Shown one piece after another: positions 17,726-62,826 of a stretch of DNA of 62,826 nt (position 1 is the first letter of the stretch; each line of letters begins with the position of its first letter). The DNA is taken from the NCBI GenBank assembly GCA_041739995.1, contig JBGSMV010000034.1, positions 1-62,826 of the forward strand, read 5' to 3'. The translations under genes and the position numbers were made by a program. Under the pieces are notes generated by a model. It was not told the DNA's origin, made no database searches, and saw only the letters and a program-made list of their open reading frames with translations. The stretch is from Bdellovibrionota bacterium (GTDB taxonomy: Bacteria; Bdellovibrionota_C; UBA2361; JBGSMV01).

Positions 17726-18559
17726 TTAGGAATGTTTCCACTCATCTGCGAGAGGGGTGAGAGAATGAGTGCCTACGCTTACCTTGGAGCCAGGCTGCGA
17801 GTTTTCCGTAGTGAGGCCCGGGTTGAGGTCACGGTCGAATTGAGAGAGGAAATTTCTGGCGCGGCGATGAAACTCCTTGCCCTCGTCAAGAAGCCAACGG
17901 CGAATGGTTGGAATGTAGCGAGGTTCGATGTTGTCGAACTCAGTTCGAAGGTGGAGGTTGGTGATTGGGGCTGGCTTAAAGAGGTTTTCTTCGACCGCAT
18001 AGATCAGTTCGTTGACGTCGTTTGAGAGAATGTCTAATCCGGCACTAGAAGACTCCCCTACAGGAAGCTGGCGATACAGTAGAATCAATTCTCCCTCGCG
18101 GCGTTCGACGAGAGAGCGTCTCTCCAGTTCAAAAAGCACCGTTCCTGGATTGATAGCGGCGCTCACTTTCGCGCAGAGCTTCCTAAAATCGGCATTTTTT
18201 CCGCTAATTGTAAGGGGTTTTGGCTCGCCCGCGCGTGTGCAGAATTCAGGATCATTACGCCACTGCCCGATAGCGCGCGTGAGGAAGTGACTTGAGCTAT
18301 TATCAGCCTCCTCTGGCTGTGCAGCCTTTATGCGAAGTACTTCCGCGCGACGAATTCCGGTGAGGACGCTTAATCGGCTGATGTTGATCTTGTCATCTTC
18401 CTTGCTTAGCTCCTGCTCGGCTAGTTCCACGAATAGTTCTTTGGCCACTGAGACAAAGTCCTGTAGTGCCAGCGACGATCGCAAGCAGAAGCGCACCAGA
18501 GGTCGCAACACAGAGCGAAGGGCGGCTCTACGAACGTTTTCTGAAGGCGAGCAGCTCAT
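17726..18559 (-). CDS. DUF6502-family protein
   Basis: LRPLVRFCL...FV..A...ISRLSVLTGIRR..V...IGQW..DPEF pattern. Clear paralog of 58194..59024. Confidence 0.75.
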   Translation of the reverse strand: MSCSPSENVRRAALRSVLRPLVRFCLRSSLALQDFVSVAKELFVELAEQELSKEDDKINISRLSVLTGIRRAEVLRIKAAQPEEADNSSSHFLTRAIGQWRNDPEFCTRAGEPKPLTISGKNADFRKLCAKVSAAINPGTVLFELERRSLVERREGELILLYRQLPVGESSSAGLDILSNDVNELIYAVEENLFKPAPITNLHLRTEFDNIEPRYIPTIRRWLLDEGKEFHRRARNFLSQFDRDLNPGLTTENSQPGSKVSVGTHSLTPLADEWKHS

Positions 18560-18799
18560 TTATCGCACCTAAACCTCGGTTGGGGTGTCTGAAACAGACA
18601 TTCTCTTCTTAGTAATCGGTAGAAATTGAATAATTTTGGAGAGTAGGCCACAGATTATCTTACAGTAATTTCAACTTGTTAGCTTGTTTTCGTCTCTTGA
18701 GAGGTAATATCTTTGATTTTCTGGTGAAGCAAAGGCGCTGCTCGAAACGAACATTTTATGATGCTTCATTTGAAGCTTGGTGAATAACAGTTCTTGAAT

Positions 18800-18905
18800 T
18801 TAGAAAGTGAAGGGAAATGCCCTTCCATCTAATGGGTTGGTTTTGGTGAAGGCCTGTGCGGAAACGCAAAGGCGGTTGGTTGTTAGAGGTTGGTTGTGAA
18901 GAAGG
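18800..18905 (-). ncRNA. Candidate CA-rich sRNA (look-alike of 59616-59737)
   Basis: Minus strand: ACAACCAACC x2, hairpin (18852-18873), AAAACCAACCC, then a GAAGGG/CCCTTC stem followed by ACTTTCT. No promoter identified. Confidence 0.35.
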
Positions 18906-19732
18906 TCCATTCCTTTCTGGGCGTACCCTCGTCTGTGAGTATCCATACTTCAGAGTCTGGAGGAGCCACTCTTACCCCTACAGTCCACTATAAAACCATC
19001 GGCAACATTGTCGAGACCTGCGAGGTTCAAGAACCATCGACTACATTTTGAGGGAGAAAATAGTTTTTGTTAGGGAGAGCAGTCCCTCACGGTGCCGAGC
19101 GCAGCTTTCTAACTGACCACGCACCACACAGCAAAGACGACATCGTAATGATGAGGTAATTGATTAAATTCTGCGTACTAGTGATGCAGTTGTTTGGGTA
19201 AGTCCCCACCACCACCACCCGAACAGCTCCGCAAGTAGCAAGCGCAGGATTGAAATTTAATACCTCTGGCGTACTCGTCACAAACCTCAAGCGTGAAGGC
19301 TGGCCTAGCATCACGTGGGGGACTGCTCTCTCAGACTGAAATGCTTCCTCGATTGCCCGGCACCTTGCGGGCAATTTTTTTTGGAACAAAGATCGACTGA
19401 AGTGACTTGGTGTGCGCCGATAGTCTCCATCGGCTCTGCGCAAGAACTACTTCAAAACACTTGGGGCAACCTCCGTTGGTGGTGGGATAGTAGTCCGGCA
19501 GAATCTGGGTACTCGCAGCGCCAGTTGGTGATAGATATAAGCCTAAATCACTCTCGATCTATCAATCGATCTATCAATCGCGTCCACAGCTGTCGACGAA
19601 AGCAGCCGTTCAGACTCATAAAAGCGAGAACTGGTAACCACGAGCCCATTTTAACCAAAGCTAGTAAGCCACGAGTTTTGCAGTCACGCCACACACGTGG
19701 GTGTTCTTTAACCCGAGTGGGAGGCGAGAAGA

Positions 19733-24816: not shown

Positions 24817-24833
24817 AGCAAGGTATATGCCAT
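24817..24833 (-). promoter_or_regulatory. Sigma-54 promoter of the cytochrome-DUF1800-DUF1501 operon
   Basis: ATGGCATATACCTTGCT on the minus strand. Confidence 0.75.
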
Positions 24834-24871
24834 GAACGAATCGCTTTGCATGGTACGATGGGAACCATATT

Positions 24872-24888
24872 TTGCGGTTTAGGCGCAA
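24872..24888. promoter_or_regulatory. TTGCG-N7-CGCAA palindrome (putative regulator site)
   Basis: TTGCGGTTTAGGCGCAA, 38 nt from the sigma-54 box. Confidence 0.7.
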
Positions 24889-25167: not shown

Positions 25168-25184
25168 TTGCGGAGACACCGCAA
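25168..25184. promoter_or_regulatory. TTGCG-N7-CGCAA palindrome (putative regulator site)
   Basis: TTGCGGAGACACCGCAA, 36 nt from the sigma-54 box. Confidence 0.7.
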
Positions 25185-25220
25185 ACTGGTTACATAGCGC
25201 CGCTGGAGGGCGTAGGAAGT

Positions 25221-25237
25221 TGGGCATGTCTTTTGCA
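25221..25237 (+). promoter_or_regulatory. Sigma-54 promoter
   Basis: TGGGCATGTCTTTTGCA, GG-N10-GC. Confidence 0.65.
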
Positions 25238-29793: not shown

Positions 29794-29810
29794 ATGGCCC
29801 CGTTCTTGCT
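29794..29810 (+). promoter_or_regulatory. Sigma-54 promoter
   Basis: ATGGCCCCGTTCTTGCT, GG-N10-GC. Confidence 0.6.
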
Positions 29811-29833: not shown

Positions 29834-30964
29834 GTGCCCCCTATGGAACTGGTTGTAGATACTAAACATAAGTGCCGTCAGCTACTTGCAAAGGTAACCG
29901 CTCGGCAGCCGCTAGTCTTGGGGGTGGTCGCACTCTTCCTAGTCTGTTTCCTTACTCCTATTGGCGCTCATTGTCAGGTTTTCTTGAGAAGAAATGCCAT
30001 TCGGGTTCGCGCTGACTATCGACTCGTACGCAAGAATCGTAGAGCTTGTAAAGCAGATAAGTTGCTAATGCGATCGCGCATGTCGATGTGCGATCCAGAT
30101 CACGATCATCTTCCGAGCGTGAGGGAGTACCGCAGATACAAAACAAATTACCGCAAGCGTGACTCCGATGGAGACGGGCTCGATGACAATCTGGAAATTG
30201 CTCGATACGGAACCAAGCCACGAAAGTTCAATACAGACGGTGACGGATGCTCTGATGGTCAGGAGGTTCTCGTAACTGGTACGAATCCGCTGTTGGCCGA
30301 CTGTATTCTTGACCCTGAGAACATGCCGATTCCTGATCCCTCAAATACTCCGGTTCCAGAGCCGACTCCGTACGTGCCGCCTGCAACACCAACTCCGTAT
30401 GCGCCACCGACGCCATGCGCAGGAGGAAACTTTGATGGACAAGGCGATACGTCGGCATTTGGAATCCCAGCGCCGCTGATTGGAAACATCATGAGTGGAC
30501 AAGTTTTCTATTCACAGACTTGCGGTGCAGGCGGCTGCCACGGCAACACAGTGAGAAATCCTGGAATTCAGTTTGCTGACCTTAAGGGTAAGGTGACCAG
30601 TCCGCCCATGAGTCTTCCCGGAATTACCGACCAGTCATTCGCGCACTTAGTGGCCTATTTAAACCAGGCCAATGTAGGTGATTGTGGAATGGGAACGCCC
30701 ACACCGACTCCGACGCCCAACCCGGTACAGTATGGCGCCCAAATATTTACTTCTTCCTGCGCGCTTGGCGGCTGCCACTCGCTTAATTCTAATGGACGAC
30801 CTAACCGAATGGATCGGCACCCCTCAAGAAATTCTATTCATGAAGCCCTTTGGACTGGCCCTGATGAAATGCCACAATTTCGTCATTTTACGATTGGACG
30901 AGAGGCACCTCCTTATACCGTTCAAGAGGACGCGTTGTATCAATACCTGCAGAGTCTTCCGTAA
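29834..30964 (+). CDS. Secreted putative diheme cytochrome c with TSP3-like D-x-DGDG repeats
   Basis: DSDGDGLDD and TDGDGCSDGQE repeats, PT linkers, CGAGGCH and CALGGCH, FAHLVAYLN. Confidence 0.7.
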   Translation: MPPMELVVDTKHKCRQLLAKVTARQPLVLGVVALFLVCFLTPIGAHCQVFLRRNAIRVRADYRLVRKNRRACKADKLLMRSRMSMCDPDHDHLPSVREYRRYKTNYRKRDSDGDGLDDNLEIARYGTKPRKFNTDGDGCSDGQEVLVTGTNPLLADCILDPENMPIPDPSNTPVPEPTPYVPPATPTPYAPPTPCAGGNFDGQGDTSAFGIPAPLIGNIMSGQVFYSQTCGAGGCHGNTVRNPGIQFADLKGKVTSPPMSLPGITDQSFAHLVAYLNQANVGDCGMGTPTPTPTPNPVQYGAQIFTSSCALGGCHSLNSNGRPNRMDRHPSRNSIHEALWTGPDEMPQFRHFTIGREAPPYTVQEDALYQYLQSLP

Positions 30965-32813: not shown

Positions 32814-33122
32814 ATGTGCGTTTCGTTTCAGTCTCGTGCCTATGGCATGAGGCGTGCGCCTGACTTTGGCGCATGCCTTGTCGAGTATCTTTTACTCATA
32901 CTATTCGCGTTTTCATTCGCGTTGGTTGTTCTTCCTGCGTTTACTGAGCGGCTTTCGTTCGCCTTAGCGGGTGGCCTCAATCCGTCGATCAATCTGATGT
33001 CGATGGAAGGGGGCGGCTCGACCTCAAATAACGGGGGCGATGCCTCGACCGGTGGCCCGTGTGGTCTCCCCGGCCAAGACCCGTGTCCCGACGAGCCTGA
33101 TGCCCCGGATCTTCCAGACTAG
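32814..33122 (+). CDS. Flp/type IVb-like prepilin with Gly/Cys/Pro-rich tail
   Basis: G|ACLVEY plus hydrophobic helix; GGGSTSNN...PCGLPGQDPCP. Confidence 0.6.
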   Translation: MCVSFQSRAYGMRRAPDFGACLVEYLLLILFAFSFALVVLPAFTERLSFALAGGLNPSINLMSMEGGGSTSNNGGDASTGGPCGLPGQDPCPDEPDAPDLPD

Positions 33123-48367: not shown

Positions 48368-49675
48368 CTATTGCAGTAGCAGCAAAGCCAGCGAAGGCTG
48401 GGTATTCGCCTGGGCTAGGATGCTCGCCCCCGCTTGCTGAAGAATGCTCTTCAATGCCAGGTTGGCAGTCTCGGCGGCCATATCGGCATCCACAATTCGA
48501 GAACGCGCCTGCAGCGATGCTTCGCGACTCCCGTTCGCTAGTTGAAGAGCGCTGAGTAGTCTGCTTTCAAGCGCCCCGTAGTTTCCCCTTAGAGCGGACA
48601 AGTCGTTGAGCCGAGACCTCACCACGCCGAGTGACGACAGTGCTCTTGAAACTGTATCCACTCCGCTGAAGTCAATCGCACTACCGTTCCCCGCGTTCGC
48701 TCCTTGGGTGAGAAAGCGCAAGCCCGTAAGGTCGAGTGAAACGCCCCATGTACCGTTCGAAACGGTGTACGTTGTGCCGTTGTATACGGAACCATCCGCG
48801 GGATTGATTAGATGGTTGCCACTGCCGCTCAGAAATTCGAACTGATTTGCCGCTGCAGAAATTGGGGTCCAGACCTCGGAACCTTCGCTGCGGTAAAAAG
48901 AGATTACACCGACGGTGTCGGCACCAGGTGCATTCCAGTACCCGTTAATGAAGCCGACTGCTACCTCGACCTGTTCTCCGGTATCGGTTGTGGTGGTGGT
49001 AAAGTACACTTGGTCTCGAAAAGCAGCTCGCAGGTCTTCCTCGGTTGGCGTTCCAGAGACGCCAAAGGATAGAAATGCGAATATGTCACCCACTGCTACC
49101 CCACCGATTCCATCCCAATCTGGTGTAGCCAAAGTGCTTCGATTGATTATTCCGCTTAAGCTTGCCGTATCCGCCGAGGTGGAGGTAATGCGAGCAGAAG
49201 AAGAACCATTAATCCCGACTTGCAGATCGAGCAGCGACAGTCCGTTGGCGCGAGTTCCACGTAGCAGTGAGAGTCCATTGAAAGTAGTGGAGTCACCCAG
49301 TCGCCCAAATTCCTTAAGTAACTGCTGATACTCAACATCAAGGCTGCGGCGTTGCGTGCTCGAGTAAGATCCATTTGCTGATTGTTCAGCGAGCTCGGCA
49401 AGGCGATTTAAAATTCCGCTCTGCTGATCGAGAACGCCATTTGCAATGCTTATCAGTGAGAATCCATCACTGATATTTCGAGCAGTAGCGGAGTAGAGGC
49501 GCGCATCCGCGCCAAGGCGCTCCGACACAGCAAGGCCCGCTGCGTCGTCGCTGGCCCGATTTATGCGCATACCGCTACTGAGTCGCTCGAACGTGCGACT
49601 TAAAGCTTCTGAGTTTTGCGCGAGAGATCGTTGCGCACCTAACGATGCAACGTTGCTCCCAATTGTAATGGGCAC
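48368..49675 (-). CDS. fliC: Flagellin (orphan)
   Basis: RLSSGMRINRASDDAAGL N-domain and SRIVDADMAAE...LAQAN C-domain. Probable GTG start at 49675. Confidence 0.9.
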   Translation of the reverse strand: MPITIGSNVASLGAQRSLAQNSEALSRTFERLSSGMRINRASDDAAGLAVSERLGADARLYSATARNISDGFSLISIANGVLDQQSGILNRLAELAEQSANGSYSSTQRRSLDVEYQQLLKEFGRLGDSTTFNGLSLLRGTRANGLSLLDLQVGINGSSSARITSTSADTASLSGIINRSTLATPDWDGIGGVAVGDIFAFLSFGVSGTPTEEDLRAAFRDQVYFTTTTTDTGEQVEVAVGFINGYWNAPGADTVGVISFYRSEGSEVWTPISAAANQFEFLSGSGNHLINPADGSVYNGTTYTVSNGTWGVSLDLTGLRFLTQGANAGNGSAIDFSGVDTVSRALSSLGVVRSRLNDLSALRGNYGALESRLLSALQLANGSREASLQARSRIVDADMAAETANLALKSILQQAGASILAQANTQPSLALLLLQ

Positions 49676-55155: not shown

Positions 55156-57282
55156 CTATCCCTGGAAGAACACCGCCAAGAAGGCAAAGATATCCGGGGG
55201 AGTTACTGCGCCGTCATGGTTAATGTCCGCCCGTTCTTCCTGAGCAAAGTATGCTGCGAGGAAAGCGAAGATGTCAGCTGGATTCACCGCGCCGTCTTGA
55301 TTGAAGTCCGCGGGATTGGCGCCAGGAGACGAGGAGGGAAGTAGTGCAATCACTTGCTCTGCTTCCATTCCTTCACGCTGAACGATAGCGAGTAAGGTTA
55401 GTTCACCCGCGTCGTTGGCGACCTTGCGCTTCAAGGTATAGGTGAACGGACCATCATAATTCTCGATAACGGCGGTGTCGCCGCTCGCAAAGCGCACGCT
55501 TGTTACTCCGCGAACCACCGGTAATGAGGCTTGACCTAAGCTGTCAATGGCGAGAATAGCAGGACGAACAGTGCCTGGACTGTCCTCAGCTGACCGCACA
55601 CTCACCATCGCAAAGCCTTTGCCATTTGGCAGCGCGAGTCCGCTAACATGATTGCTGCCACCGACTGTTACGGTGTAGCCGTCTACTATATCCCCGTCAC
55701 GAATTGCCAAAGGCGCTTGCCCTGGCACTGCGCGGATAAGAACCCGAGCGTTCGTTGCTTGGTCCTGTGCTCGTACCAACATTGAGCCATCGCGGGCTAA
55801 GCTGACCTGCTCAGGAAAAGGAAAGTTTGCAAGTCCTAGTCCCAACGATGAATGAGCAGACGAACTTTCGAGTGCAACTTCAGCAGTACCGTTGAGCTTA
55901 ATGCGAACGATAGCCCAAGCACTGCGAAGCGAGCCGTTCTCGTTGCTTAGCGACGTAAGGATGTAGAGGTCTCCATTGTCCGCAAGGAAGCTCTTGATGT
56001 AATTAATGGAGTCTCCGACCGTCCCAAAGGCGGTAGTGACTTCATTGAGAAGTCCGATTCTGAAGCGTCCCGAAGGCCCGTCAAAGAGTTTTCCGGCAGT
56101 TGCTTCGAACTTGAGGGAGCCCGTGCGGTCAGAGAAAATTGCATGACCTCCGGTGCAACTTATCCCGGCATTGAATGCGACTTTGCCTGAGCCGTTTACG
56201 TTAAGTTTCGAATACGCGCTTGAGGAAATGGCGCAGTCGGGGGTTGCTCCGTCCGCAATTTGTCCGTCTCTGGCAACAAGCTCTAGCGCACCATTTTGGT
56301 ATCGATAGAGTGCTTGGCCATTGGAACTTGTTACCCCTTCGCCTACCAGTGTCACGCCGAACGCTGCGACTCCATTGTCATTCACATTCCGTACGGTTCG
56401 AAGCGGGTAAGGAAAGGCACCGAATTGGGCTCCGCCTGTAGCAGGAGCAACCTCACCGCTACGCGCAATCTGCTCAACCCCACTTGCACTTTGATGTAGA
56501 ATTGCCGATTCGCTGGCAGAGGAGTTTAGGCTCGCGGCAATAAGTTGCTCGCCTACACGGTTCTCCGGCTCAACCGCGCTAAGGATAGAATGAAGAGGGA
56601 TAGCTCCCAAAGCGGTTTGATTTTGAGCAAGGAGGTCCGAAGATGCACCTTGTTGTACTCGAACAAGCCCGAGCTGATTGCTGGCATTTATTCCAGGTCC
56701 CGATAGGCGGCACATGGTGAGTGCTTCGCCATCCCCGGTTATGGTCGGCTTATACTGCGCGTTAGCGGTCGCAGTAACATCGGCGCTAATATTGCCACTT
56801 ACACTTTGTAGAAGATCTTGGTCGCGAAGCAGATGCTGAACCCCTTCTCCCGCACGATATCGATAGAAGTGACTTGAAAGAGCGCTGTTCGGATCTCCGT
56901 CCCACATCTGTGCGGGAAAAATCACATCGCCTTGCTGATTGATCTGCGGATAAATTCCAGTGCCGTTCCCAATGATAAGAGACAGAAGCATTTCGCCGCT
57001 GGGGCTTGCCGCAGCGATCTCTTGTGACTCTGCGATGACTTGCAGTTCAATCGGTGCAGGACCGCGCAGAACAACCTGCTGTTCTTGTACAGACCCGGGC
57101 TTCGCCCAGGCCGAGGTGGCGATACCACTAGCAAGAAGAAGGGAGAGTCCAAGCGCAAACTTGGATTTCAATTGACTTCGCTGTGGATGTGCTGCGCTGC
57201 TGCTTCGTGGCCGGCACATAAGCCTGGCGACGCTAATATTGCTGGTGTTGGATTTGGCAGATACTGACTTAGCAAACCTCAT
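55156..57282 (-). CDS. Secreted NxxGxxAF tandem-repeat protein with C-terminal dockerin-like domain
   Basis: NDNGVAAF, NGSGKVAF, NQQGDVIF repeats; tail ADFNQDGAVNPADIFAFL...ADINHDGAVTPPDIFAFL. Confidence 0.8.
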   Translation of the reverse strand: MRFAKSVSAKSNTSNISVARLMCRPRSSSAAHPQRSQLKSKFALGLSLLLASGIATSAWAKPGSVQEQQVVLRGPAPIELQVIAESQEIAAASPSGEMLLSLIIGNGTGIYPQINQQGDVIFPAQMWDGDPNSALSSHFYRYRAGEGVQHLLRDQDLLQSVSGNISADVTATANAQYKPTITGDGEALTMCRLSGPGINASNQLGLVRVQQGASSDLLAQNQTALGAIPLHSILSAVEPENRVGEQLIAASLNSSASESAILHQSASGVEQIARSGEVAPATGGAQFGAFPYPLRTVRNVNDNGVAAFGVTLVGEGVTSSNGQALYRYQNGALELVARDGQIADGATPDCAISSSAYSKLNVNGSGKVAFNAGISCTGGHAIFSDRTGSLKFEATAGKLFDGPSGRFRIGLLNEVTTAFGTVGDSINYIKSFLADNGDLYILTSLSNENGSLRSAWAIVRIKLNGTAEVALESSSAHSSLGLGLANFPFPEQVSLARDGSMLVRAQDQATNARVLIRAVPGQAPLAIRDGDIVDGYTVTVGGSNHVSGLALPNGKGFAMVSVRSAEDSPGTVRPAILAIDSLGQASLPVVRGVTSVRFASGDTAVIENYDGPFTYTLKRKVANDAGELTLLAIVQREGMEAEQVIALLPSSSPGANPADFNQDGAVNPADIFAFLAAYFAQEERADINHDGAVTPPDIFAFLAVFFQG

Positions 57283-57319: not shown

Positions 57320-57336
57320 AGCAACTTGCGTACCAA
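57320..57336 (-). promoter_or_regulatory. Sigma-54 promoter of the dockerin-protein operon
   Basis: TTGGTACGCAAGTTGCT, near-consensus. Confidence 0.8.
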
Positions 57337-57374
57337 GGCGAAAGCAGCGTGGGGATAGGGCGAGTCACCAAATT

Positions 57375-57391
57375 TTGCGGTAACACCGCAA
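57375..57391. promoter_or_regulatory. TTGCG-N7-CGCAA palindrome (putative regulator site)
   Basis: TTGCGGTAACACCGCAA, 38 nt from the sigma-54 box. Confidence 0.75.
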
Positions 57392-58193: not shown

Positions 58194-59024
58194 CTACTTG
58201 CGGGTCTTCTCAATCTCCGGTTCGCCAGGAGTTGGTCGCGAAAGACTAAAGGCGTGAAGTATTACTTTCTCGCCGCCTTGGTCGTCTTTGGCGAGTTTTG
58301 GATTTAGATCTTTGTCGAAGCGCGCCAAGTAGCCACGCGCCTTTTTGTGGAACAGCTTGGTGTGCGCGACTAGCCAGCGCCGAATCTGAGGCAGATTCTT
58401 TGCTGATATATTGTCATACTCGGTGCGAATGTAGGCTTCTCCGATAGCATCAGGACGGGACATGTTCTGCTCAGTGGCTTGTATAAAGGCTTCGATGTCG
58501 CGAGAAAGCAGCTCTAAACTCTCATCGCTGCCGGGCTCGGTTACCGAACCACCTCTGATAAGCTTCACTCCACGTGAGGTTCTTTTTATCGCCTTGATGC
58601 GCTCAAGTGCATAGAGCACCGTGGGCGGATACACGCCTTTTCGCACTTTGCTCACAAGTTGTAAGAAGCTTGCTCCGTCACCCTCGATTGGCAGAACGCG
58701 AGGGTAGCCTTGTGCCGTATGAAATTCAGGGTCGCGCTCCCATTGCCCAATGACTGATGAAAGTAGTCCTTGCTCGGCAGTGGCCGCAGGGGCTTCTTCG
58801 TGCAGCAATTTTGCGACGTCTTCTCGATAGATGCCCGTAATCATGCTGATACGAGAGGAGTTCACTTTCTCGTCTGCGGCTCGGAGATCGTCGGCGGCGA
58901 TACTCACAAAGAGCTCGCGCAAGGTGGCAAGGGTATCCTGATATGTCACGTGTTGCTGCAAACAGAACTTGACCACCGGCTTAAGGAGGTAGCGAACCAT
59001 GCGGGCTCTAGGCTCTATTGCCAT
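58194..59024 (-). CDS. DUF6502-family protein
   Basis: LLKPVVKFCL...SRISMITGIYREDV...IGQWERDPEF...RTEYDNI; paralog of 17726..18559. Confidence 0.75.
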   Translation of the reverse strand: MAIEPRARMVRYLLKPVVKFCLQQHVTYQDTLATLRELFVSIAADDLRAADEKVNSSRISMITGIYREDVAKLLHEEAPAATAEQGLLSSVIGQWERDPEFHTAQGYPRVLPIEGDGASFLQLVSKVRKGVYPPTVLYALERIKAIKRTSRGVKLIRGGSVTEPGSDESLELLSRDIEAFIQATEQNMSRPDAIGEAYIRTEYDNISAKNLPQIRRWLVAHTKLFHKKARGYLARFDKDLNPKLAKDDQGGEKVILHAFSLSRPTPGEPEIEKTRK

Positions 59025-59533
59025 ACAAGAAACACCAAAACAGAAAGGTAAAGTTCGACAGAATAAGCGCCTTAGTCGTCGTCTACTCTAGGGGTAATTC
59101 GGCGTACTGATAAGATGCCTTAAGGGTCTAGGATCGTTTTTGCTAAATTAGCGCAATTTCCATTTTCCTGAATCAGCATAGCTGCTTGGTCCGGAGTGCG
59201 CAGGCGTAGGGAGTCTGGCTCTGAAGTGTGGTAGGAGTCTGAATTGGCGGATAACTAGTTGGAATGGCTGTCAGTTTGAGCCGATAGAGAGAGTGGGAGC
59301 GGGTTGTGTTTCTGGGCCTCCTCCAGTGGCTGCGCCTTCCTGGTTGCGTGCAAGCCGCAATAACCCCAGGGTGTTCACGGGCTACTGGAGGCCAGCAAAG
59401 CATGGCTGCGTTAGGGGCAAAGAGGCGCTAGGGCTCAGGCGTAGAGGCCTAGAATCAGTAAATACGACTAGTTAGGCGACTTGTGATGCTGCGCGGGGCC
59501 AGTTATCTCAGGCCTATTTGCCCTCAGTTTTCT

Positions 59534-59550
59534 TTGCGGTGTCACCGCAA
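59534..59550. promoter_or_regulatory. TTGCG-N7-CGCAA palindrome (putative regulator site)
   Basis: TTGCGGTGTCACCGCAA, 38 nt from the sigma-54 box. Confidence 0.75.
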
Positions 59551-59588
59551 AATATGGTTCCGCGGGTAGCTTTGGCCTTGGTTCTGAG

Positions 59589-59605
59589 TTGGCCCGCCGC
59601 TTGCT
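59589..59605 (+). promoter_or_regulatory. Sigma-54 promoter of the candidate sRNA
   Basis: TTGGCCCGCCGCTTGCT, GG-N10-GC. Confidence 0.75.
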
Positions 59606-59615
59606 ATAAACTGTC

Positions 59616-59737
59616 TTAACAACCAACCACTCCAAAGGATTGGAGCCCTAACACCACCCAGGAGGCGTTGTTGAGATAAGTGAGCGCGATGCAACAGGCC
59701 CGCATCCGACACCTCTCAACAGCGCCTCCATTTTTTT
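59616..59737 (+). ncRNA. Candidate sigma-54-dependent small RNA (~120 nt)
   Basis: Bounded by a sigma-54 promoter and a 16-bp stem plus T7. Contains AACAACCAACC and the CTCCAA-AGGA-TTGGAG hairpin. No credible ORF. Confidence 0.65.
59661..59737 (+). terminator. Intrinsic terminator-like stem with U-tract
   Basis: GGAGGCGTTGTTGAGA / TCTCAACAGCGCCTCC followed by ATTTTTTT. Confidence 0.75.
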
Positions 59738-60202
59738 GCTCAGCTTGTCGCGTTAACGGGCTCGAGGGTGTCGTTCACAACACTTCTCTACGCAAATCAC
59801 TTTCAGCGGGGGATCCCTGAGTAGGAAGGAGGCCGGCCCTAGTCCAGTGTAGTTAAATCTTGCGTAAACGACGTGTTGAGATCGTGGCAGTAGTCCTCCC
59901 CTGAATGACCGAAAATGCAGCTCGCCGGAGCAGTGCGAGTTTCCGGCCACATACGCCGGAAACTCACTTGGAGCGCTCTTATGAGAAAGAAGAACTGGTG
60001 TCCTGGTCTTATTTTATCTAGTGACTTTATGCTCGGGCACTGGAGATAGTGCGAGCGATCGCATGCCAGGGAGTATGTCGGGGAGCATGGAATGTTGAGA
60101 GATGACGCGCTGAGTTGTGAGTCGCGCGAGCGCCGTAGGACTTGCTAAGCGACCGGGAGAATATAGTGTTTTTGCCGGAAAATTATGATTTTACCGCGCT
60201 CA

Positions 60203-60652
60203 TTAGCGAATCTCTACTGCCGTATGTTCGTTAGCAAATGGGCCTGATGGTTCGCCGACTTCAAATTCAACGGATTGTAAATCTTGATGAGACCCCACAA
60301 TTCCTTTCTCGAGGTGAAACGCTGGGCAAGGTATCTCGCCTGGACCGCCGCATGGGCACAAACCTTCAAGCCAGACACCGATTGCCGCTGAAGCTTCACA
60401 GTCGTACCCGACAATACTTCCTGGGTTGTCATTGTTGGTAGAAGATCCACCGCCAAGGGCGGCCACTTCCTGTCCGGCACGACCAAAAAGCGCAGAAGAA
60501 GTTTCTCCAAGAAGCGAGGTAATTGCTATCGTGGCGAATCCTAACGTCACAAGAATAACAAGATATTCAGGGATAGAGGCGGCCTGCTCGCCTCGACGAG
60601 TGTCTAGGGACTTGTTCGCTATGGAGCGTGCTGTCGTGTTCTCTTGAGCCAT
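60203..60652 (-). CDS. Flp/type IVb-like prepilin with Gly/Cys/Pro-rich tail
   Basis: A|ASIPEY plus hydrophobic helix; GGGSSTNN...PCGGPGEIPCP; GAGGT RBS. Confidence 0.6.
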   Translation of the reverse strand: MAQENTTARSIANKSLDTRRGEQAASIPEYLVILVTLGFATIAITSLLGETSSALFGRAGQEVAALGGGSSTNNDNPGSIVGYDCEASAAIGVWLEGLCPCGGPGEIPCPAFHLEKGIVGSHQDLQSVEFEVGEPSGPFANEHTAVEIR

Positions 60653-61014
60653 AAACCTACCTCGTTTCCTTGGTCTTATAAATGAGCCGACCAAGTTCTC
60701 TAGAGATGTATCCAGGGCTGAAGCACAAGTGCTCCGTGCGACAAGGCCTAAGTCGAGGGATGGGGGCTAAAATACGCTTTGGGACTAGGAGAAACCCGTA
60801 GATATGGAGGTAACCGTCGGAAATTTCTCGTATGCCACGAGGCGGAGAGGGAAGCAACGCAGTTGTCTCACTCGTCCATCTTGGAGCGCGGGCACTAGTT
60901 TAGCCAGGGAAGCTTGCGCCAGAATTGCGTGACTTTTTGTGGACACCGGCGTCGAGTCTAAGCAGCACGTCGGCTAGTACAGTCTAATTAAGCCGATCAC
61001 CGCGTCTTTTGGTG

Positions 61015-61785: not shown

Positions 61786-62472
61786 GTGATGAGGAGGTGG
61801 GGTATGCGCTGGGCACAAAGACACGTAGAAAATAGAGACAGATATCGAAGTGCCAAGTTCTTGGGCCGTTTGCTCTGTGTGCTTGCTTTAATCCTGCTAG
61901 TCGCCAACCCTGCTTTAAGTCAACAGAGTAGCCGTTCGGGGTCGAAAACCTTGTATACCTGGGAAGACGAGCGCGGTGTTCAACACTTTACCTCTTCAAA
62001 GCAAGAGGCAGTCGCCAAGGGCGCGGAGGTAAAAAAGGCGGATCTTGCGCCCATAATGCGTGGAGAGTTGAAGATTCCAGCCACTCAAGCAGTTAGCTGT
62101 GTCCCCCATGGCGGCATTGACTGTGCCGCAGGCTCGGATGCCGATGGTTCCGTGCTGTGCGTTGATGGGTTTAGAGACGCCTCCCCGAGGTTTCGCTTTA
62201 GCTGCTCGGCCGTTCATCTTGAGGTGGCCGACATTACGGTAGATGAAGATCAGAACATAGTGACAGTGTTTATTCGCAATCGCTCTCAAATCTCCGCTGA
62301 GCAAGTGCGGATTTCTCTTCGAGGAAAGGAAGCGAACCTTGCGCTCGTAGGTCCTGAAACAATCGAAGGTTTCGGACTTGAGCGCTATGAAGCTACCGCG
62401 CCGGAAGGACACCGTGCGTCGGTTGCGTCGAAGAGCTCTGTGAAAGTCGCGTGCGTGAACTGTGGAGCATAG
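61786..62472 (+). CDS. Secreted DUF4124-domain protein
   Basis: Signal peptide then LYTWEDERGVQHFTS; Cys-containing C-terminal region. Confidence 0.75.
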   Translation: MMRRWGMRWAQRHVENRDRYRSAKFLGRLLCVLALILLVANPALSQQSSRSGSKTLYTWEDERGVQHFTSSKQEAVAKGAEVKKADLAPIMRGELKIPATQAVSCVPHGGIDCAAGSDADGSVLCVDGFRDASPRFRFSCSAVHLEVADITVDEDQNIVTVFIRNRSQISAEQVRISLRGKEANLALVGPETIEGFGLERYEATAPEGHRASVASKSSVKVACVNCGA

Positions 62473-62826
62473 CTTCGAAATTCTCGCAGTTGGATTAATT
62501 TAGCCCTCTAAAAGACCCGTTTTACATAGTTTCGGCTAAGGGACGGGCGACCTGGGCGTCTTAATTTGTCGCGGCATAATTCTTGTACTTCCAAACCATT
62601 GGTGGTGCCAGCGGGCTGGATTCTGTGGCCCCAGTTCCTCTCTTGAGGATCCTCTGGGGCAGGCTTTTGGTGGTGGTAGCAATGAATAGCTGGTGTTTAA
62701 ATCTTTCTCGTGGTTTGCGTCGTGGTCGGCACAGTAGCGGTACGTCGGTCATTGAATATACGCTTCTATTGGCGAGCATCTGTCTTTTTGCCCCTCTAGC
62801 GCTCAATAGCGTTTCCAACACCGTTT

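Follow-up and report, generated by a model that had tools for sequence, protein, structure and literature searches.

The predicted small RNA (sRNA) gene described here lies on the + strand, at positions 59616-59737 of the window, by which we mean the whole 62,826-nt stretch of DNA that was analyzed. Its upstream neighbor is a divergent DUF6502 gene, and there is no + strand gene upstream. The next substantial + strand open reading frame (ORF) downstream starts at 61786, and a convergent gene for a small protein that we call Flp-like (about 60203..60694, - strand) ends at 60203, 466 nt from the sRNA terminator. In order, the unit consists of a palindrome, a -24/-12 promoter box, a 5' end rich in C and A, a small hairpin whose loop reads AGGA, a strong hairpin, and a run of seven U residues (U7). 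We infer that transcription starts 12 nt after the GC of the -12 element, giving the following unit beside its divergent neighbor:

58194..59024, - strand: DUF6502 gene
59616..59737, + strand: predicted sRNA, ~122 nt
59616..59629, + strand: unpaired C/A-rich 5' end UUAACAACCAACCA, candidate seed
59630..59645, + strand: hairpin 1, a 6-bp stem (CUCCAA/UUGGAG) with an AGGA loop
59646..59660, + strand: unpaired C-rich linker CCCUAACACCACCCA, second candidate pairing region
59661..59737, + strand: intrinsic terminator, a 16-bp basal stem with an inner extension, then U7

The probable transcription unit and its terminator

The first 45 nt of the sRNA are G-poor, with A or C at 34 of the 45 positions (76%), and are unpaired apart from the weak hairpin 1. 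The sequences AACAACCAACC (59618-59628) and CUAACACCACCC (59648-59659) lie within the unit on the + strand. The basal stem of the terminator pairs 59661-59676 with 59714-59729 (16 bp, including one G-U pair) and encloses a GAUGC/GCAUC hairpin (59688-59692 and 59702-59706); U7 occupies 59731-59737. The minimum free energy calculated by RNAfold for 59612-59740 (+ strand) was -47.3 kcal/mol (z = -6.35), and none of 200 shuffled sequences folded as well. The predicted structure contained the same elements that were read from the sequence. All of the elements listed in the initial annotation (the palindrome, the sigma-54 box, the CUCCAA-AGGA-UUGGAG hairpin, the stem with GAUGC/GCAUC, and U7) are therefore present and agree with the calculated fold. 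That annotation placed the beginning of the unit at 59589; the palindrome at 59534-59550 sits upstream of this coordinate.

The fold signal comes mostly from the terminator. When the 5' 45 nt were folded alone, the energy was -6.6 kcal/mol (z = -1.84), equaled by 10 of 200 shuffles. The - strand of the unit also folds well (z = -3.55), so the assignment of the strand rests on the promoter and the U-tract.

We ranked terminators by locating all T-runs of at least 6 on both strands of the window and scoring the preceding hairpin with our own script. This ranking was used in place of a hairpin-terminator scan with a loop limit of 3-8 nt, which misses the sRNA terminator. Among the 35 T-runs on both strands, the sRNA terminator hairpin was the most stable (-40.7 kcal/mol), and the next best had an energy of -24.7 kcal/mol. 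There were no copies of the hairpin elsewhere in the window or in 44 related loci.

The properties of the terminator bear on whether the transcript could be longer or act in cis, reading through as an antisense to the Flp-like gene (60203..60694, - strand), with transcriptional interference or an antisense RNA as the outcome and the hairpin as an attenuator. The unit is convergent with that gene, and the 466 nt between them are non-coding and include a hairpin at 59937-59965. However, a stem of -40.7 kcal/mol with U7 immediately after it should be an efficient terminator, the + strand offers no ORF for attenuation to act on, and no riboswitch or leader family matched. We consider read-through quite unlikely. 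The element at 59937-59965, between the sRNA and the convergent gene, is a perfect 11-bp inverted repeat (GAGTTTCCGGC-N7-GCCGGAAACTC) and has no U-tract on either strand.

We found no protein gene in the unit. There were no Pfam matches for the ORFs overlapping it, and a 56-aa overlapping ORF had no homologue among 5.8 billion clusters. A 46-aa overlapping ORF had two phmmer matches only, both giant repeat proteins, and these were rejected as repeat artefacts (BLASTP E = 15). If the transcript encoded a small protein, for example from the 46-codon GTG ORF at 59680..59820, the AGGAGG at 59660-59665 could serve it, and open frames are present. However, the terminator stem sequesters both the AGGAGG and the start codons, 14 nt separate AGGAGG from GTG, and the GTG ORF passes through U7 to 59820. 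Together with the missing Pfam match and the absence of a real homologue in these searches, this makes a small-protein gene extremely unlikely. The fold, the terminator and the absence of a gene are direct readings of the sequence.

A sigma-54 promoter module and its recurrence

Upstream of the predicted start is a sigma-54 box preceded by two palindromes. Palindromes paired with a box were also found at other positions in the window:

59344..59360: distal palindrome TTGCGTGCAAGCCGCAA, centered at ~-264 relative to the start assumed here; a probable second activator site
59534..59550: proximal palindrome TTGCGGTGTCACCGCAA, perfect over 17 bp, centered at ~-74; putative enhancer-binding-protein site (UAS)
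59551..59563, + strand: extension AATATGGTTCCGC (motif CCGCAAAATATGGTTCC), from the alignment of promoter copies
59590..59605, + strand: sigma-54 box TGGCCCGCCGCTTGCT (TGGCCC-GCCGC-TTGCT), with GG-N10-GC spacing
57320..57391, - strand: same module, with box TGGTACGCAAGTTGCT, before the 708-aa DUF7453/dockerin-like gene 55156..57282
24817..24888, - strand: same module, before the operon 24781 to 20445 (unknown protein, DUF1800, DUF1501)
25168..25237, + strand: fourth palindrome (25168-25184) and a weaker box GGGCATGTCTTTTGCA, with 37-nt spacing

The distal palindrome is 190 nt upstream of the proximal one. The CCGCAAAATATGGTTCC extension is common to the sRNA promoter and the promoter at 24888, and is partly shared by that at 57391; it is possibly an A-tract bend. 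The box at 59590-59605 fits 10 of the 11 specified positions of the sigma-54 consensus. A second, weaker GG-N10-GC box (TGGTTCTGAGTTGGCC, 59579-59594, + strand) overlaps the main box from 11 nt upstream, so that the same bases serve as its -12 element and as the -24 element of the main box.

The second palindrome copy, at 57391 (- strand), came from an nhmmer search of the window against itself, and a systematic scan gave the fixed architecture. The bare -24/-12 box is not rare: TGGC-N7-TTGCW occurs 3 times in the window versus 1.29 expected, and 14 of 100 shuffles reached 3. The palindrome pattern TTGCG-N6-CCGCAA by itself occurs at five distinct sites in the window versus 0.04 expected, and all five are intergenic. 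The composite pattern, in which TTGCG-N6-CCGCAA is followed after exactly 39 nt by TGG-N8-TTGCT, occurs 3 times in the window versus 0.00 expected, and none of 100 shuffles reached 3. Of the four boxes in the window with a score of at least 10, three have a palindrome at the module spacing. The two modules that precede protein genes lie 25-27 nt before an ATG with a Shine-Dalgarno sequence, and the sRNA copy is without such an ORF. The palindrome and weaker box at 25168..25237 could act as a distal site of the 24817 promoter or else as the promoter of gene 25220.

Both the promoter module and the fact that it recurs can be read directly from the DNA. Because the module recurs before two protein units, the sRNA promoter looks real, as part of a local sigma-54 regulon driven by a bacterial enhancer-binding protein (bEBP) that is predicted to bind the palindrome. 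No bEBP gene is encoded in the window, and the TTGCGG-N5-CCGCAA palindrome is not assignable to any bEBP known to us. In Desulfovibrio vulgaris, sigma-54 promoters (in an unstated proportion) lie no more than 100 nt from their nearest EBP binding site (PMC4641369). By analogy with such promoters, the 39-nt gap between site and promoter is in known ranges.

These counts also bear on whether there is any gene here at all. The box and the hairpin could be unrelated, with the palindromes serving DUF6502 and the hairpin being structural or a terminator of the convergent gene. The frequency of the bare -24/-12 pattern is high enough for a chance occurrence, and the distal palindrome is 320 nt from the DUF6502 start. 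However, palindrome and box are coupled at a constant 39 nt in three places, which is not a chance pattern, the stem on the - strand is followed by UGGGUGGUGUUAGGG rather than a U-tract, and no further copy of the hairpin was present in the window or loci. The initial annotation had named one such outcome, that the stem is merely the terminator of the convergent Flp-like gene; with U7 on the + side only and the gene 466 nt away, this is unlikely. We regard the absence of a gene as a rather improbable explanation.

We conclude that a sigma-54-dependent non-coding transcription unit at 59616-59737 is very probably real. The proposal that this is a complete orphan non-coding unit with a sigma-54 promoter and an intrinsic terminator is supported by the composite module, the rank of the terminator, and the lack of ORF homology.

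Several other observations concern sigma-54 boxes and genes in and beyond the putative regulon. The 708-aa protein (55156-57282, - strand) carries a signal-like segment at its N-terminus, a DUF7453 domain, and a C-terminal pair of dockerin/EF-hand-like repeats of the NQDGAVNPADIFAFLAAYF type. A good sigma-54 box (TGGCCCCGTTCTTGCT, 29795-29810, + strand) is 24 nt before a gene for a protein with TSP3 repeats and a cytochrome-c domain (29834..30964). This box has no palindrome and is therefore probably under the control of another activator. We dismissed a further sigma-54-like box, at 49661 (- strand), as it is within the flagellin coding sequence. In a locus from a related MAG (L023, 3941-8091), a sigma-54 box (TGGCCCATGTTTTGCA) precedes a DUF1800/DUF1501/cytochrome-like gene set, and the upstream inverted repeat there (CGGTAACCG) differs from the palindrome in the window. 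Judging from these sequences, sigma-54 control of the DUF1800/DUF1501 gene set may be conserved despite the differing activator site.

The kind of RNA

A search of the whole window with Rfam at gathering thresholds gave no matches. A permissive search (E up to 10) of 59000-60300 gave four weak snoRNA-type matches, none of which overlapped the unit. On sequence grounds the sRNA is outside every named family, in keeping with the earlier statement that its family could not be named.

The closest parallels are trans-acting sRNAs that depend on RpoN and a bEBP: NrsZ of Pseudomonas, GlnZ of enterobacteria, Qrr1-4 of Vibrio, and four non-coding RNAs of Desulfovibrio vulgaris. Like these, the sRNA described here is preceded by a -24/-12 promoter and, farther upstream, a palindrome; its body is short and non-coding, it ends at an intrinsic terminator, and it is apparently co-regulated with protein genes of a regulon. 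It differs in having no sequence or structure match in Rfam and in its host, an uncultured Bdellovibrionota/Oligoflexia-like bacterium. The Rfam model for Qrr, in particular, had no match to the sRNA even with E up to 10 in 59000-60300. Published studies describe the RpoN-dependent GlnZ and NrsZ as a non-coding arm of the regulon (PMC9731577) and list four non-coding RNAs in the sigma-54 regulome of Desulfovibrio vulgaris (PMC4641369).

Two groups of protein-titrating RNAs are similar in part. The CbrB/sigma-54-dependent Hfq/Crc decoys CrcZ and CrcY of Pseudomonas share with the sRNA a sigma-54 promoter and C/A-rich single-stranded stretches. However, CrcZ is ~400 nt long and has several AAnAAnAA motifs, and the sRNA here is 122 nt, has none of these motifs, and gave no Rfam match. 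CsrB and RsmX/Y/Z carry many GGA loops and depend on GacA/UvrY. The sRNA shares with them one GGA in a hairpin loop, but this is its only loop GGA, GGA is not enriched in it, the promoter is of the sigma-54 type, and there was no Rfam match.

These likenesses suggest that the RNA might be a decoy, in which the AGGA loop binds CsrA, or motifs of the ACAACCAACC type bind an RNA-binding protein, following the logic of CsrB/RsmZ or CrcZ. The one loop GGA lies in a tetraloop with an A-U closing pair. According to one report (PMC13443453), Bdellovibrionota have a functional CsrA. In addition, ACAACCAACC recurs in front of the window's second DUF6502 gene, and sharing of a motif with an mRNA leader is expected of a decoy. 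The composition and arrangement of the motifs argue against this. There are 3 GGA in 122 nt versus an average of 1.36 in shuffles, of which 12.5% have at least 3; one GGA is in the loop, one is in the stem of hairpin 1, and one is in the terminator stem. One site cannot sequester a dimeric protein in bulk. AAnAAnAA does not occur, there is no run of three ARN triplets, and the CsrB, Rsm and CrcZ models gave no match. The look-up of csrA and hfq proposed in the initial annotation found neither gene in the 63-kb window, which is a small part of the genome. We therefore set aside the protein-sponge analogies (CsrA, CrcZ) of the initial annotation, since GGA is not enriched and neither AAnAAnAA nor a three-ARN run is present, and we consider a decoy unlikely. 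Its remark that a single clear GGA loop does not make a classic CsrB/RsmZ was accurate, as 1 of the 3 GGA is in a loop.

A C/A-rich 5' seed followed by a terminator and a U-tail is most likely the layout of a base-pairing sRNA, by analogy with such RNAs. Our preferred reading is that of an independent sigma-54 sRNA gene of ~122 nt whose product acts in trans by base pairing, and we put the probability of this reading as a whole at about 0.5. The activator, pairing as the way in which the RNA acts, and the targets are parts of this reading that we infer. A sigma-54 activator (bEBP) encoded outside the window would bind the TTGCGG-N5-CCGCAA sites at ~-74 and ~-264 and open sigma-54 RNA polymerase at TGGCCC-N5-TTGCT. 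The transcript would begin near 59616 and end at the hairpin and U7, at 59737. The same signal would turn on at least two protein operons, one for the secreted DUF7453/dockerin-like protein and one for the unknown protein, DUF1800 and DUF1501. The RNA would act through its unstructured, C/A-rich 5' 45 nt (UUAACAACCAACCA, CUCC and CCCUAACACCACCC), pairing with G/U-rich or Shine-Dalgarno-like stretches of mRNAs. The sRNA might thus be the repressing, non-coding arm of an otherwise activator-only regulon; because sigma-54 activators can only activate, we suppose that the sRNA would supply the repression, a concept that has been put forward for GlnZ and NrsZ (PMC9731577).

Candidate targets, DUF6502 genes and relatives

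We compared the seed with the 47 translation-initiation regions of the window, and none was beyond the 1% background quantile. Use of the whole 46-nt region as the query in RNAduplex gave duplexes with long loops that were uninterpretable, and runs with the seed only gave no outlier. The neighboring mRNAs were unremarkable except for a 10-nt match at 32921, inside the coding region of a Flp-like ORF.

A motif of the sRNA did lead to a second locus. There were four matches to ACAACCAACC versus 0.83 expected, and 1 of 100 shuffles reached four. On the - strand, the motif is found in tandem at 18874 (exact) and 18888 (one mismatch), in front of the second DUF6502 gene (17726..18559, - strand). 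This gene is also preceded by a sigma-70-like promoter (10 of 12 matches) at 19014..18987 (- strand). With transcription of the - strand there, two RNAs would have the motif in common; with transcription of the + strand, the RNA would bear three GGUUGGUU sites complementary to the sRNA seed. We view the ACAACCAACC link to the second DUF6502 gene as a lead, to which folding and alignment of the region added no support.

The region upstream of the second DUF6502 gene was also considered as a paralogous sRNA, and this was rejected: its folds were unremarkable (z = -0.71 and -0.79), and in local alignment 112 of 300 shuffles scored as high as the real sequence. Within 18560-19384, the - strand also has CCAAAACCAACCC, and the + strand has, near 19204, a CCCCACCACCACCACCC run. 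At 19351-19384 (+ strand), GATTGCCCGG...CGGGCAAT and a T8 directly after it form a strong terminator without a gene, the second-best in the window. The interval 18560-19384 could represent a further non-coding unit or else a long leader.

It is conceivable that the sRNA, under sigma-54 control, is a decoy or a sibling regulator with a tie to the multi-copy DUF6502 genes. Its 5' motif UCUUAACAACCAACC is found twice more ahead of the second DUF6502 gene; the sRNA would compete with that leader for a factor that binds the CA motif, by a CrcZ-like logic with a new motif and a new protein, or would pair with a + strand RNA from there that bears GGUUGGUUGU. We give this idea very little credence. 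If it were true, the DUF6502-linked decoy or pairing would be the first riboregulatory circuit described in an uncultured Bdellovibrionota-like lineage.

Relatives were gathered by means of the flanking DUF6502 protein, which yielded 44 loci (657 kb) with a best identity of 43%. These loci are probably paralogous. Neither nhmmer nor a single-sequence covariance model found an sRNA homologue in the 44 loci (anchor identity ≤43%), and therefore there is no covariation support. The palindrome pattern and the seed motif were likewise absent from these loci (≤43% identity), and by tblastn none of the 44 was syntenic with the neighborhood of the sRNA. CA-motif counts upstream of DUF6502 genes in the relatives were at the background level. 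Searches of plasmid and phage collections gave no match.

Closer relatives of the DUF6502 protein, 79%, 74% and 64% identical, exist as protein sequences, and those homologues that have names belong to MAGs of Bdellovibrionales, Oligoflexia and Bdellovibrionota. For MnmG, the best match has 71% identity, and the named matches are Oligoflexia or Deltaproteobacteria MAGs. On this basis, no close relative is known. DUF6502 genes are multi-copy: two are in the window, and 8 of the 44 loci are from one MAG.

Genes for sRNAs that are divergent from a regulator gene are familiar from oxyS/oxyR, gcvB/gcvA, sgrS/sgrR and qrr1/luxO. The sRNA here is likewise divergent from DUF6502, and the AlphaFold model of the DUF6502 protein (pLDDT 78.6, pTM 0.37) has helix-turn-helix-like and winged-helix-like segments. 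DUF6502 has no AAA+ sigma-54 activator domain, and comparison of the model with PDB folds gave no match at E ≤0.001, the weak top matches being transcription factors (HetR, BusR and LexA). A role as regulator of the sRNA is not indicated.

Three small proteins in the window (32814-33122, + strand; 60203-60652, - strand; and 62583-62825, + strand, running off the end) have an N-terminus consisting of EY plus a hydrophobic helix. This resembles the Flp-pilin motif, and we use the name Flp-like from the motif alone. Two of the three have Gly/Ser/Asn-rich and Cys/Pro-rich tails. The ORFs at 32814-33122 and 60203-60652 had no Pfam match at E ≤0.01.

We found no report of a sigma-54 sRNA in Bdellovibrio in the open-access full-text literature, which is not proof of absence in print. 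If transcribed, the sRNA would be a riboregulator in a Bdellovibrionota/Oligoflexia-like lineage known only from metagenome bins. The regulon signature, consisting of the 17-bp palindrome, the fixed 39 nt and the -24/-12 box, links the RNA to genes for secreted or surface proteins. This signature is the more useful product of the analysis, as it provides a search pattern for the whole regulon and its activator in the full genome or in closer relatives.
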